Source: Clostridia bacterium (GTDB lineage: Bacteria; Bacillota; Clostridia; Oscillospirales; CAG-272). Taken from it: 64,000 nt of DNA. Under the pieces are notes generated by a model. It was not told the DNA's origin. It did no database searches and worked only from the letters and a program-made list of their open reading frames with translations. Position 1 is the stretch's first letter; each line of letters opens with the position of its first letter. The stretch lies in assembly GCA_017462485.1 (NCBI GenBank), contig JAFTRA010000042.1:119214-183213 (forward strand), in the 5' to 3' direction. Position numbers and translations under genes: made by a program. This document shows positions 35,946-51,090 of this stretch, in pieces.

Positions 35946-36320
35946 TAGACTGGGTGGGGCAATCGCGCGATAACACGCCGAAAGGTTTTATCGTGAGGAA
36001 AGTCCGGGCATCAGAGAGCAGGATAACGGATAACGTCCGTCTGGGGCGACCCACGGGAAAGTGCAACAGAAATAAACCGCCGTACCTGTACGGTAAGGAT
36101 GGAAAGGCGAGGTAAGAGCTCACCCGTTTCTATGGCAACATAGATCCGCTGTAAACCCTATCCGATGCAACGCCTTGAGCTTCGGGGCAACCCGAGCCGC
36201 TGCTCGCGGCTTATCATGGCGGCAGAGCCTTACGGCTTGAACTTAACGGTGACGTTAAGTGAAGATAGATGATTGCTGCGCCAAAAGGCGTACAGAACCC
36301 GGCTTACAAGCCCAGTCCAA
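35946..36320 (+). ncRNA. rnpB: RNase P RNA, bacterial type A
   Basis: Universal P4 halves GAGGAAAGTCCGGGC and ACAGAACCCGGCTTA. AGTGCAACAGAAA, GGTAAGAGCTCACC and AGATAGATGATTGC are present. P1 pairs GACTGGG (35948) with CCCAGTC (36311). Confidence 0.92.
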
Positions 36321-36348
36321 AGAAAGCAATCTGACAAAAACATAAAAC

Positions 36349-48502: not shown

Positions 48503-48554
48503 AACTATTCTCCTTAATTTTTAATTGTTGTAACTTGAGGGCATTTTATTAAAG

Positions 48555-48788
48555 GATACCACGGTCAAAAAAGATATTTCGGGGAGTTTTCGTATGGACT
48601 CGAACCCACGCGTCTTAATCACGGCATAGCCGTGGATATCATCAAAACGGAGTTTTGTATATCACCAAGGCGTGAGCCTTGTATATCATCATTGCGAAAG
48701 AGGATACAGCCTACGGCAGATGATATACACCTTCGGTGATGAGATACACGCTAACGCGTGATGATATGCCATTGCTTTCGCAATGGAT
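48555..48788. other. ornate nested hairpin/9-mer element A, with the 19-nt inverted-repeat cap at its outer end
   Basis: GATACCACGGTC+A6+G at 48555-48573. Three (G/T)ATATCA(T/C)C motifs, then three GATGA(T/G)AT motifs, interleaved with six different short hairpins (details in findings). Confidence 0.6.
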
Positions 48789-48823
48789 AAAAAAATTCGA
48801 CAAGTCAAAACTTGTCGATTTTT
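48789..48823. terminator. bidirectional terminator (tRNA-Gln on the minus strand; element A on the plus strand)
   Basis: A7, TCGACAAGT / ACTTGTCGA, T6. Confidence 0.85.
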
Positions 48824-48897
48824 TGGCAGGGGTAGCAAGATTCGAACTTACGATGAGGGAGTCAAAGTCCCTTGCCTTGCCGCTTGGCGATACCCCT
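48824..48897 (-). tRNA. tRNA-Gln (anticodon UUG), CCA encoded
   Basis: The reverse complement AGGGGTATCGCCAAGCGGCAAGGCAAGGGACTTTGACTCCCTCATCGTAAGTTCGAATCTTGCTACCCCTGCCA folds as a cloverleaf with anticodon loop CTTTGAC. Closely resembles E. coli tRNA-Gln. Confidence 0.95.
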
Positions 48898-49090: not shown

Positions 49091-49633
49091 ATGAAATATT
49101 CGTCAACAAATCGGTTTGAAGATTTTGAGTTTCATGATTCTATGCTATCATTGGTGTCATGGGATAACTCGCGTTTGGTCATCGCAGCAAAGCACCTAAA
49201 CGTGCACAAAGACGCAGCGCCAAACAATGCCGGAGCAGATATGGAGATATCCGAAGCCCGCATTACATTCTACGAAGCTCTAGTAAAAGAATTCGAGCCG
49301 GGGCGTGCGTGGAAAAGAGACGAGAGCGGCAATTCATATACCGATGATCCTTTAATTATTCACAACGGAAAAGCTGCGCACGATATGTTTGAAAATGAAT
49401 TACGCAATTCCATTACAGTTATTGGATTTACATCTGACAACGGATTGTATGAGCTTGGTGCGGTTGGCATTGATCCTTATTTTTCTGTTCGTTTTACTTT
49501 TTCCAAATTTGAAGTAGAATGGGATGATTATCGTGAAAAAGCATGGTACGAATTGCATAGACAGTATAAAAAAACGATTACTCTCGCAACTGAAAACGAT
49601 AATATTGAGCTTGACGCTCACATATTGACTTAA
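49091..49633 (+). CDS. hypothetical cytoplasmic protein (180 aa)
   Basis: GAGGTGAG RBS. No signal peptide and no motif I recognise. Followed after a 16-nt gap by the next gene, so probably co-transcribed with it. Confidence 0.6.
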   Translation: MKYSSTNRFEDFEFHDSMLSLVSWDNSRLVIAAKHLNVHKDAAPNNAGADMEISEARITFYEALVKEFEPGRAWKRDESGNSYTDDPLIIHNGKAAHDMFENELRNSITVIGFTSDNGLYELGAVGIDPYFSVRFTFSKFEVEWDDYREKAWYELHRQYKKTITLATENDNIELDAHILT

Positions 49634-49649: not shown

Positions 49650-50459
49650 ATGTTTGGAGCAATATACGGAGACGTAATCGGCTCGTACTATGAAGTTCAT
49701 TGTACAAAGAATTACAATTTTGAATTCAACAAAGACAGTTATTTCACAGATGACAGTGTTTTAATTGCAGCAGTATGTAAATCAATACTTAATAATCCCA
49801 CTGAAATATCAAAATGGAATCTTCACGCCCGTTCCAAAGAATACGCCTCACACTATCGCCAATATTATTCGTACCATCCTCACGCCGGATTTGGGAATAT
49901 GTTTGCCGCTTGGGCAAAAGATCCGTATGCAAGTAATGGGCACAGTTATGCCAACGGCGCATCTATGCGAGTCATTCCAATCGGATATGCATACGACACA
50001 TTGGAGCAAACACTCCTGCAAGTAAAATCAAGTTGTATTCCTACTCATAATCATCGGGAAGCAATCAAAGGCGCGCAAGCGGTTGCTGCGGCAATTTTTT
50101 TAGCGCGAAACGGAGAGGATAAGGAGCAAATTAAAGCATATTTAGAAAAAACATTTAAATATAAGCTATCAACCCCTCTCACCACAATTAAAGAAAACCA
50201 CGTGTTCGATAGCCGTACATCCTATAGCGTTCCACCTGCGATTATTGCGTTCTTGGAATCGACAGATTATGAAAGTGCAATCAGAAATGCAATTTCCCTC
50301 GGTGGTGATGCAGATACACAAGCGTGCATAGCGGGGGGTATCGCAGAAGCTTATTACAAAGAAATCCCCGAACATATCAAGCGCTTTTGCGATAACAGAA
50401 TTGACAGTTCTATCAAATCCGTCGTGAAAGAATTTAAACAAAAGTATTTCATTAGATAG
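49650..50459 (+). CDS. ADP-ribosylglycohydrolase family protein (ARH/DraG/Tri1-like)
   Basis: IYGDVIGSYYE, FTDDSVL, ANGASMRVIPIG, PTHNHREA, LGGDADTQACIAGGIAEAYY. This is the full set of metal-site motifs of the family. Confidence 0.85.
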   Translation: MFGAIYGDVIGSYYEVHCTKNYNFEFNKDSYFTDDSVLIAAVCKSILNNPTEISKWNLHARSKEYASHYRQYYSYHPHAGFGNMFAAWAKDPYASNGHSYANGASMRVIPIGYAYDTLEQTLLQVKSSCIPTHNHREAIKGAQAVAAAIFLARNGEDKEQIKAYLEKTFKYKLSTPLTTIKENHVFDSRTSYSVPPAIIAFLESTDYESAIRNAISLGGDADTQACIAGGIAEAYYKEIPEHIKRFCDNRIDSSIKSVVKEFKQKYFIR

Positions 50460-50733
50460 ATTTTTGTTTACAAGCATGGCGTTAAAAGTTCTGTAGAACG
50501 CGGATACTTTTAACTCCCATCATCGCCAAGGGAAATGTGCATCATCACGAGAAAATCCGTGCATCTAACTCGGCCACACACTACTGTATCTAAATTTGGC
50601 ACACATCACAACAAAAGCACCCACTGAAAATGGGTGATGTTCTTAGCTGAGAATTTGTATTTTGACAAAAGTGCAAGCATCGCATTTGACTAGTCGAATG
50701 CATTATGGGCTAAGCCCCACCCCTTATAACAAC

Positions 50734-50783
50734 AGAAAGAGATAACAAATCGGTTTGTAGTCGAAATGTTATCTCTTTTTTCT
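50734..50783. terminator. terminator-like hairpin at the inner end of element B
   Basis: AAAGAGATAACA / TGTTATCTCTTT 12-bp stem with a 19-nt loop. TTTTTCT follows on the plus strand and an A-rich run precedes it. Confidence 0.6.
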
Positions 50784-50800
50784 GCTCGTTTTAGTTTAGA

Positions 50801-51036
50801 GTTATGAGGCTCGCAAAGCCCGCATTCGCGGGATTTTATGCTCGCCGTTATGAATTTGCTACACAAATGTTATGATATGATTGCCCATTGAACCTTAAAC
50901 TTGGCGAAGCCAATCATAACAATGCGAAGCATTTCATAACTCATAACTTGCCGGCAATGGCAATCATAACTTAGCGTGATTTGTCCGCTAAGGACAGCAC
51001 GCTAATGGTGGGTGCTCTTTTTTTGACCGTGGTATC
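50801..51036. other. ornate nested hairpin/heptamer element B, with the 19-nt inverted-repeat cap at its outer end
   Basis: Three GTTATGA then four TCATAAC motifs interleaved with seven short hairpins. Ends with T7+GACCGTGGTATC (51018-51036), the reverse complement of 48555-48573. Confidence 0.6.
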
Positions 51037-51090
51037 GGTGACTCGTTTATCGTTCGCAAAGCGAACATAACCGTAAGAGAACCTTTAATT

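Follow-up and report, generated by a model that had tools for sequence, protein, structure and literature searches.

A mirrored array of linkers and mini-hairpins behind a tRNA-Gln gene in a Clostridia genome, and its relationship to the Gut-1 motif

Layout of the locus

The window analyzed here, a stretch of 64,000 nucleotides from the metagenome-assembled genome (MAG) of an uncultured Clostridia bacterium (assembly GCA_017462485.1, contig JAFTRA010000042.1), contains a non-coding array next to a tRNA-Gln gene, herein element A, in which short linkers and mini-hairpins alternate in two mirrored arms and which is a relative, by architecture, of the Gut-1 motif (RF01706). The eight largest open reading frames (ORFs) between 43 and 54 kb correspond to a melibiase, YetF, MatE, an unknown 180-aa protein, an ADP-ribosylglycohydrolase, an M20 peptidase, GHL6, and an unmatched 58-aa ORF, and the neighboring genes are those of ordinary metabolism and transport. 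A bacterial class A RNase P RNA (35947-36322, 247 bits) marks the window as chromosomal. An initial annotation of positions 48555 to 48823 reported an ordered sequence with no ORF and proposed a structured RNA gene of about 270 nt or, alternatively, a site that forms hairpins or a cruciform as DNA. The features of element A and its immediate flanks are as follows:

48581-48609, minus strand: terminator-like hairpin, probably outside the array, followed by TTTTTT at 48572-48567
48620-48689: tRNA-distal (left) arm, with hairpins at 48620-34, 48643-57, and 48666-81
48635-42, 48658-65, and 48682-89: left-arm linkers GATATCAT, TATATCAC, and TATATCAT, respectively, reverse complements of the proximal linkers
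48690-48718: center of element A, with one strand of the helix P1 (CATTGCGAAAG, 48690-48700) and a small hairpin, GCC-TAC-GGC (48709-17)
48719-48768: tRNA-proximal (right) arm linkers GATGATATA (48719-27), ATGAGATA (48739-46), and ATGATATG (48761-68)
48728-38, 48747-60, and 48769-86: right-arm hairpins
48769-48786: hairpin h0, CCATTGC-TTTC-GCAATGG, which reads GCGAAAGC on the minus strand and overlaps the P1 strand at 48775-48785
48789-48826: H-long, the module with which elements of this class begin, a bidirectional terminator hairpin that has its stem at 48797-48818 between an A-tract and a T-tract
48824-48897, minus strand: tRNA-Gln (UUG), Rfam tRNA 58.9 bits, with its 3′ end facing element A
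48947-48919, minus strand: tRNA-Gln promoter, TTGACA-17-TATAAT with TG, 12/12 consensus positions

The hairpins and 9-mers of the initial annotation were placed correctly to within 1 nt, and no ORF of weight was found in the stretch. Six linkers, three per orientation, alternate with six perfect mini-hairpins between 48620 and 48786, in the mirrored order that had been described. The mini-hairpins, with stems of 4-7 bp and loops of 3-5 nt, were rightly called unrelated, having no sequence in common with each other or with the hairpins of a second array in the window, element B, and the classic tetraloops noticed among them (cUUCGg and GNRA loops) are present. The linker is 8-12 nt long with the core TGATGATATACA; counted together with the flanking TG and CA, left-arm copies read TGTATATCATCA and right-arm copies TGATGATATACA. 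For the left arm, the repeat finder returned a period of 23-24 nt (D1). It also returned the inverted pairs I5-I8 and I13-I15, among which the inner linker pair, previously given as a perfect 9 bp, was confirmed as a perfect inverted repeat and extends to 11 bp (I7). An 11-bp perfect pairing of 48690-48700 with 48775-48785 (I10) had been overlooked; this is the P1 of element A, and it encloses the tRNA-proximal arm. Read in the sense of the tRNA, the proximal arm has ATATCAT-type (pyrimidine-type) linkers with GAAA, GTTA, and GAA loops.

The ordered stretch is real and far beyond chance. Specifically, the 10-mer GATGATATAC (≤1 mismatch) occurs in 11 copies in the window against 3.55 ± 1.94 expected, a count that 0 of 100 shuffles reached, and six of these copies fall in 48634-48769, three per strand. 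The folding z score was −6.3 for the plus strand and −5.25 for the minus strand, with none of 200 shuffles as good, and a scan of the whole window for hairpin chains returned conserved linkers at elements A and B only. Calculated for the plus strand as RNA, the six hairpins alone gave −41.6 kcal/mol, the hairpins plus three linker helices −48.4 kcal/mol, and the fold with P1 −46.1 kcal/mol, the unconstrained minimum being −65.0 kcal/mol; values for the minus strand were nearly equal. The three-story helix of paired linkers that had been proposed is therefore energetically feasible, but it is not the sole fold. The linker pairing was also expected to be maintained in relatives, and this did not hold: across 95 related elements, linker variants were uncompensated in the other arm (2 complementary versus 77 not). 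The helix conserved with compensatory changes is P1, not the linker pairing. Complementary arms occur in at least four unrelated linker dialects, which can mean either pairing or the same site read both ways.

As had been noted, element A adjoins the tRNA-Gln. Because the tRNA is on the minus strand, the array lies downstream of the tRNA 3′ end, and H-long, with its 9-bp stem, alone separates the two. The good plus-strand terminator of the initial annotation exists at 48797-48818, but it is bidirectional and primarily the tRNA-Gln's own. A search of both strands within and next to element A, and of the plus strand upstream of it, revealed no promoter-like site; this, the lack of a G·U excess in the stems, and the similar behavior of both strands argue against a plus-strand RNA gene of about 270 nt.

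The unit was initially taken to start at a 19-mer shared with element B. The 19-mer is real, but its copies are inverted, and positions 48573-48619 probably do not belong to the array:

48554-48572, plus strand, and 51019-51037, minus strand: 19-mer GGATACCACGGTCAAAAAA, 18/19 identical, 0.03 expected
51018-51037, minus strand: second copy of the 19-mer, forming on the plus strand the T-run and tail behind the terminator-like hairpin at 50996-51016

The two copies may mark the termini of a mobile module, or they may just be related terminator tails. The inverted copies bracket 2.5 kb comprising element A, tRNA-Gln, the 180-aa ORF, the ADP-ribosylglycohydrolase gene, and element B, and this whole segment is missing from relatives that share the MatE/melibiase side. 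The 19-mer was not found in related loci, and an 18-mer common to elements A and B had 36 single, chance-level matches in unrelated taxa or coding sequence among 185,579 reference genomes, in which the source species was not included.

Relationship to Gut-1

At the gathering threshold, Rfam identified only the RNase P RNA and tRNA. The earlier statement that element A matches no RNA family holds in the sense that none reaches its gathering score, but the best match under relaxed conditions is Gut-1, in the right arm (18.2 bits, where the gathering score is 50; E 1.1; full length, covering all 77 model positions; 48699-48772, plus strand). ROOL and GOLLD, which had been suggested as candidates, gave no match, either at the gathering score or with E relaxed to 10.

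The Gut-1 motif was reported by Weinberg et al. (2010, PMC2864571), where it is said to occur in human-gut sequence and its published structure comprises the three hairpins of one arm only. Rfam types Gut-1 as a small RNA (sRNA) on covariation grounds, and its consensus there has three hairpins set apart by UGAAAU. Our search of the literature on the motif itself, on arrays of hairpins, and on repeats located downstream of tRNA genes returned only Weinberg et al. 2010 (PMC2864571).

We found a larger mirrored element, of which Gut-1 represents a single arm. Among the sequences of the Gut-1 Stockholm alignment, the flanks of BAAZ01025322 run from a tRNA 3′ end through a terminator, GUGAUAUU-hairpin units, a center, and hairpin-AAUAUCAC units, and BAAZ01000095 has the same arrangement behind a coding gene. 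The published model is thus without the mirrored arm, P1, the terminator module, and the tRNA-3′ association.

Element A and Gut-1 both have short GC-rich hairpins and a repeated purine-rich linker with a UGA core (GUGAAAU/GUGAUAU in Gut-1, GAUGAUAUA in A), and the Gut-1 feature of at least three short hairpins with one purine-rich linker is present in A (three + three per arm, linker GATGATATA). The published flanks of Gut-1 resemble those of A in their second arm, terminator, and tRNA neighbor, and gut metagenome sequence is the sole source of both. Additionally, A has the features of the extended class, namely the reverse-complement second arm, P1 on the terminator-proximal arm, a bidirectional terminator behind a tRNA, and a loop type coupled to linker orientation. 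In contrast, A has a longer linker (8-12 nt), and both its linkers and its loops are inverted in polarity with respect to the tRNA and terminator. The canonical polarity, in which purine-type linkers and pyrimidine-rich loops are terminator-proximal in the tRNA sense, is not that of A, which is opposite to 37 of 38 canonical elements.

We built a covariance model of the P1-closed arm (R1) on 21 non-redundant members, excluding window sequences. It scored element A at 10.5 bits (E 2.8; 48679-48775, plus strand), which is not significant, in the same region and strand as the weak Rfam match. Element B scored 28.1 bits (E about 6e-5) over the full length at 50869-50971 on the minus strand, and the next best score in the window was 13.6 bits. 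We therefore consider B a divergent but true member of the Gut-1 class, and A a polarity variant of the class that is a relative by architecture only. New at the level of the family are the extended anatomy and the tRNA-3′ association; new in A are its different linker, its inverted polarity, and its position below every model threshold.

The features of element B are as follows:

50800-51005, minus strand: element B, with a long hairpin at 50971-51005
50959-68 with 50876-85: P1 of element B, GGCAATCATA with TATGATTGCC
50914, 50934, 50941, and 50964, plus strand: TCATAAC linkers of the P1-closed arm, equal to GTTATGA on the canonical minus strand
50801, 50847, and 50869, plus strand: GTTATGA linkers of the second arm

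Two of the mini-hairpins of element B are GCGAAGC, a sequence found in its P1-closed arm. The arms are complementary in each of elements A and B, yet the two have no linker sequence in common. No Gut-1 (RF01706) match was found in B at E up to 10, and Rfam gave nothing relevant on B. The rest of the spacer from the ADP-ribosylglycohydrolase gene up to B (50460-50800) contains CATCATC-spaced hairpins, a bidirectional terminator-like hairpin at 50618-50636, and a strong plus-strand terminator at approximately 50734-50786. A weak STnc320-like Rfam match lies at 50596-50649 (23.9 bits, E 0.048).

The class in metagenomes

A 24-base pattern of two left linkers and one right linker, for which few chance matches are expected by our own rough estimate, retrieved at least 120 loci from metagenome sequence, mostly of the human gut. 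The modules of the class are a bidirectional terminator directly behind a tRNA or coding gene, a P1-closed arm, a short center, and an inverted second arm. An arm consists of 3-4 units, each a conserved linker of 7-12 nt plus a perfect mini-hairpin of free sequence, and P1 comprises 11-14 bp. A tRNA was present within 250 nt in 56 of the 120 loci listed, with a median distance of 36 nt from the tRNA end to the first linker among these loci, and the tRNA pointed at the element in 74 of 74 tRNA-element pairs. These involved 13 anticodon species, and about 30 of the tRNA-linked loci represent one tRNA-Arg site sampled repeatedly.

P1 is formed by TTATATTCGCC, which spans the first linker and the 5′ side of the first hairpin, and by GGCGAATATAA in the center, approximately 81 nt away. 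Its variants occurred as the pairs TATA/TATA, TTTA/TAAA, TCTA/TAGA, CGCC/GGCG, and TTGCC/GGCAA, against 4/143 in the shuffled control, and in the 21 non-redundant members P1 was 98.7% paired, with 3 of 11 pairs changing on both sides. Of 38 informative elements, 37 had P1 on the side facing the tRNA. The same topology recurs in element A (I10), in element B, and in L041, an array from a related locus in which it is a perfect 14 bp. The terminator is part of the repeat: the stems of its hairpin are homologous (GCAATTGC) whether the preceding tRNA is that for Met, Tyr, Thr, Asn, or Gly.

Constraint is strongest in the linkers. At one locus, for which 16 haplotypes were compared, all 13 polymorphic columns of the array fell outside the 49 linker positions, and several broke stems. 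The hairpins covary strongly, and hairpin identity is kept position by position across loci. The loops TTC, TTT, and TGC accompany the linker GTGATAT, and GAA, GCA, and GAAA accompany ATATCAC; the loop type flips with linker orientation, so the arms are inverted copies of one oriented unit type. The linker spacing is 16-24 nt, some relatives have contiguous heptads without a hairpin, and tandem copies of the array occur. Base pairs in the stems were distributed as follows:

Proximal arm: Watson-Crick 142, G·T 3, A·C 3, other 3
Distal arm: Watson-Crick 224, G·T 4, A·C 2, other 4

The terminator hairpins, examined as a control, had 11 G·U pairs in the sense and 0 in the antisense direction; this control carries no weight because it reflects mostly A-tract/T-tract pairing.

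These stems bear on the chief competing explanation, a structured non-coding RNA made from one strand that would serve as a protein-binding or processing platform. In element A, it would be either a plus-strand sRNA ending at 48797-48823 or a minus-strand read-through trailer of tRNA-Gln ending at 48609-48567, folded either into a rod whose successive junctions join linker helices and side hairpins or into a P1-closed domain. The Rfam typing of Gut-1 by covariation, the very stable predicted fold, and the covarying hairpins and P1 are all consistent with such an RNA, but there is no G·U excess on either strand, both strands fold equally well, and the linkers are conserved as sequence without compensation. 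Likewise, RNA is favored by the cUUCGg and GNRA loops and by the fixed orientation (37:1) with respect to the tRNA upstream, yet the arms are of opposite unit polarity, so that only one of them would be in the 'right' orientation in any transcript, and A and canonical Gut-1 have opposite polarities relative to the tRNA. As for its synthesis, terminator-like hairpins are located at both outer ends of A, and tRNA promoters are strong, such that read-through of a few percent would presumably yield a transcript; however, a perfect terminator of 9-17 bp with a T-run stands between tRNA and array, and the plus strand has no promoter-like site upstream of A. We regard a one-strand RNA as possible but doubtful.

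The same base-pair counts are accommodated by a two-way transcription insulator, in which the array would be encountered by read-through only and hairpins in either transcript would stop, pause, or process read-through behind strongly transcribed tRNA operons. Since a G·U on one strand is an A·C mismatch on the other, stems that must work in both transcripts would be Watson-Crick only, and an insulator would also account for the mirror symmetry, the location immediately after bidirectional terminators and ahead of the following promoter, the free hairpin sequences, and the variable unit number. It leaves unexplained why the linkers are the most conserved part, why linkers are complementary in both arms, and why P1 is only on the terminator-proximal arm, and hairpins without U-tracts are not terminators by established rules. 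We consider an insulator unlikely.

Finally, four loci (L276, L289, L290, and L328) had the array followed by a related ORF of 118-132 aa in the same orientation with its own promoter-like site, and three of these sites were directly behind a tRNA. Many other metagenome loci showed the same arrangement. In L290 and L328, the ORF was confirmed to contain PF05635, a four-helix bundle domain annotated as '23S rRNA intervening sequence protein'. Internal deletions of this downstream gene were observed in two samples (L322 and L326), and no PF05635 gene was found in the window. A test of the orientation of neighboring protein genes from naive ORFs was dropped, as antisense ORFs in GC-rich genes made it unreliable. 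The sole contig from a phage collection found with a Gut-1-type array was L178 (IMG/VR, 4.2 kb), in which it occupies 1379-1570 between convergent ORFs, one of which looks by eye like a small phage head-tail connector protein.

Relatives behind tRNA-Gln

Loci sought via the family of the neighboring 180-aa gene comprised one A-like array (L041), one empty site (L039), and others with unrelated repeats. L041, which lies behind tRNA-Gln and has a 71%-identical neighbor gene, exhibits the inverted polarity of element A, with the linkers AACATCGTT/AACGATGTT and CAAATGAAGT, and its P1 comes directly after the terminator. L039 has the same tRNA-Gln, terminator, and gene, and no array. Orthologs of A were not recovered via the MatE neighbors, for which the closest relatives (79-83% identity) differ on that side and have neither tRNA-Gln nor array. 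The A-type linker pattern was also run against IMG/VR and set aside: the matches listed (at least 119) were all coding tandem repeats (GAT GAT = Asp-Asp), none with differing hairpins between linkers.

The P1 of L041 repeats, in inverted form, flank sequence that the empty site of L039 has as well, as might be left by a neutral, minisatellite-like process in which slippage duplicates the terminator hairpin with its flank and templated (quasi-palindrome) correction keeps the hairpins perfect. Such a by-product would fit the variable unit number, tandem copies, presence/absence differences, perfect Watson-Crick stems, and the tolerance of stem-breaking polymorphisms within a species. However, the architecture recurs in at least four linker families without sequence similarity (A/L041, B, Gut-1 type, and the heptads of L045), the orientation to the tRNA is fixed, hairpin identity is conserved by position, and the linkers are free of polymorphism, which together make a purely neutral origin very improbable.

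The flank on the far side of element A raises the question of integration into the tRNA gene. A T-arm-like 13-mer (GTGGGTTCGAGTC) lies at 48597-48609 on the minus strand, inside the hairpin at 48581-48609, in the same orientation as tRNA-Gln and approximately 215 nt beyond its 3′ end. The 12-mer GGTTCGAGTCCA of this fragment is identical to the tRNA-Gln T-arm in L039, and the tRNA-Gln flank is hypervariable in relatives (L043, L046, and L048), with several T-arm fragments and tandem units that end in a copy of the tRNA 3′ end. These observations would suit the remnant of a small element integrated at tRNA-Gln, in which the arms were integrase arm-type sites, attL and attR had been joined by an internal deletion (as in a cis-mobilizable element), and the displaced tRNA 3′ end remained at the far side; indeed, 3+3 inverted sites resemble att arm sites. 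Against such a remnant, the fragment had no Rfam tRNA match at E up to 10, a repeat of the tRNA 3′ end (14-mer, ≤1 mismatch) downstream of the element was absent, within the sequence available, from almost all of the approximately 70 tRNA-element pairs tested (three exceptions), and none of the eight largest ORFs at 43-54 kb contained an integrase domain. Moreover, element B and many Gut-1-type elements follow protein genes rather than tRNAs, and the palindromic spacers would go unexplained. We therefore view an integration remnant as improbable.

Several other arrangements were observed behind tRNA-Gln or near the homologous gene. L045 (1560-1650, behind tRNA-Gln and a terminator) has four contiguous CTTTTCA heptads followed by GTAATAG/TGAATAG/TGAAGAAG heptads, forming an imperfect long hairpin without side hairpins. 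L046 (2340-2940; also L047), again behind tRNA-Gln, has three tandem units of approximately 200 nt with nested hairpins flanked by the complementary TGAACTTA/TAAGTTCA, and a copy of the 3′ end of tRNA-Gln, CTTGCTACC, closes each unit. L043, L046, and L048 carry AGATTCGAAC T-arm-like fragments in reverse orientation upstream of the homologous gene. In the window, the 180-aa ORF (49091-49633) is a truncated relative of proteins of approximately 312 aa, some with PF19822 (DUF6304); these are often beside an ADP-ribosylglycohydrolase gene (here 49650-50459) and tRNA-Gln in very different neighborhoods, and several are beside transposase genes.

Two further features lie on the MatE side of element A. 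A short minus-strand ORF starts at approximately 48503, and its first 31 residues resemble an XRE-type regulator, although Pfam found nothing. Between this ORF and MatE, a 25-nt inverted repeat (48106-48130/48355-48379, 24/25 identical) surrounds approximately 225 bp of hairpin-rich non-coding sequence, the unit resembling a miniature inverted-repeat element.

Interpretation

Building on the observed architecture, family relationship, tRNA-3′ location and orientation, P1, and linker constraint, we infer that element A and its class act strand-symmetrically, probably at the level of DNA, as a dispersed recognition-site repeat, and place the probability of this reading at roughly 0.4. Watson-Crick stems in which G·T is as frequent as A·C, linkers conserved as sequence, the lack of a promoter, and the terminator in front argue against a one-strand sRNA and favor a strand-symmetric array. 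The DNA-level reading ranks first also on account of the mirror polarity, variable spacing, hairpin-free variants, tandem copies, presence/absence differences, and homologous terminators behind different tRNAs. The hairpin or cruciform site that the initial annotation offered as an alternative is a candidate that fits the data better than the RNA gene it named first.

Under this reading, the linkers would be sequence-specific recognition sites in two inverted arrays, and the palindromic spacers may fold out as mini-hairpins on strand separation, which would bring the linkers side by side. The element would carry its own two-way terminator and fill the untranscribed gap behind tRNA genes. Its role might be comparable to that of clusters of repetitive extragenic palindromes (REP) and bacterial interspersed mosaic elements (BIME), or to the multi-site ends of a miniature transposon. 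Many hairpin cores are cGNAg, GCGAAGC, or GCGAAAGC, with GCGAAGC in element B and GCGAAAGC in element A; according to Hirao and colleagues, cores of the cGNAg, GCGAAGC, and GCGAAAGC types are reportedly unusually stable as DNA mini-hairpins.

Several observations weigh against a recognition-site array. The orientation is fixed relative to the upstream tRNA (37:1), as expected of a co-transcribed RNA, and classic RNA tetraloops are present, both cUUCGg in A and in the Rfam consensus and the GNRA loops. Very short stems may not tolerate G·U, which renders the missing wobble pairs suggestive rather than decisive. Neither a protein that reads the linkers nor a pair of empty and filled sites with clean boundaries or a target-site duplication was found. 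Additionally, L041 is the only A-type sequence behind the family statistics, A has no orthologs in the loci examined, and its linkers run counter to the canonical polarity.

Since 2010, Gut-1 has stood in Rfam as an orphan motif, known only as three hairpins from uncultured gut bacteria. The Gut-1-type element is common in human-gut metagenomes, behind tRNA genes and in fixed orientation, and has several linker 'dialects', of which this window contains two at a distance of 2 kb. With an improved model, many intergenic regions of gut Clostridia that lack an explanation would be annotated, and the Rfam entry may need extension, or re-typing if it is true that the element acts as DNA. Whether the element is RNA, what reads the linkers, and by which route copies reach the flanks of different tRNAs have become testable.

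Comparison with known systems

Among known repeats, the REP/BIME clusters of enterobacteria and pseudomonads, with the related REP doublets forming hairpins (REPINs), are extragenic, genome-dispersed clusters of short palindromes that alternate or are inverted, lie behind genes and between convergent genes, and vary in copy number. They are thought to act both on DNA, through binding of gyrase, IHF, and Pol I, and on RNA. In REP/BIME, the palindrome is the conserved, recognized unit and the linkers vary, whereas the Gut-1 class does the reverse, and unlike this class they have no preference for tRNA 3′ flanks. The six hairpins of element A are dissimilar to each other and to those of B, rather than copies of one conserved palindrome, and none of the eight ORFs scanned in the window matched a transposase of the RAYT type (Y1 transposase). 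The BOX elements of Streptococcus pneumoniae are modular intergenic repeats as well, with variable internal modules between end modules that pair into a long stem-loop. Their modules are sequence-conserved blocks of 45-60 nt, unlike the free-sequence mini-hairpins of the Gut-1 class, and have no terminator module or tRNA association.

ROOL and GOLLD resemble element A in being non-coding and often near tRNA genes, but are unrelated in size and architecture. The 23S rRNA intervening sequences with a PF05635 gene are similar to the Gut-1-type sites in that a structured insertion is located at a stable-RNA gene; they differ in that the gene of the Gut-1-type sites lies outside the paired arms and the element follows the tRNA instead of interrupting it. 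K-turns, C/D boxes (UGAUGA), DnaA-trios, attC sites, iterons, and omega-type heptad operators were considered and dropped on the grounds of variable spacing, direct (not inverted) hairpin flanks, or no matching sequence.

As in CRISPR, short conserved repeats in element A alternate regularly with unique segments of similar length. In contrast to CRISPR, the repeats of A are 7-12 nt, its unique segments are perfect palindromes of 9-18 nt, and the orientation reverses at the center; direct repeats of 23-50 nt, non-palindromic spacers, and cas genes are the marks of CRISPR, and A has no cas genes nearby and only chance-level CRISPR-DR matches. We tentatively propose that Gut-1, element A, element B, and L041 form a new class of repeat whose logic is opposite to that of REP and CRISPR, with conserved short linkers and spacers that are perfect palindromes of free sequence. 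A putative enzyme might read the folded single strand, and the repeat might spread to sites just after tRNA genes with its own bidirectional terminator and, in some lineages, a gene for a four-helix bundle (Avd/IVP-like); otherwise, the class may be a new rod-shaped, multi-junction RNA.

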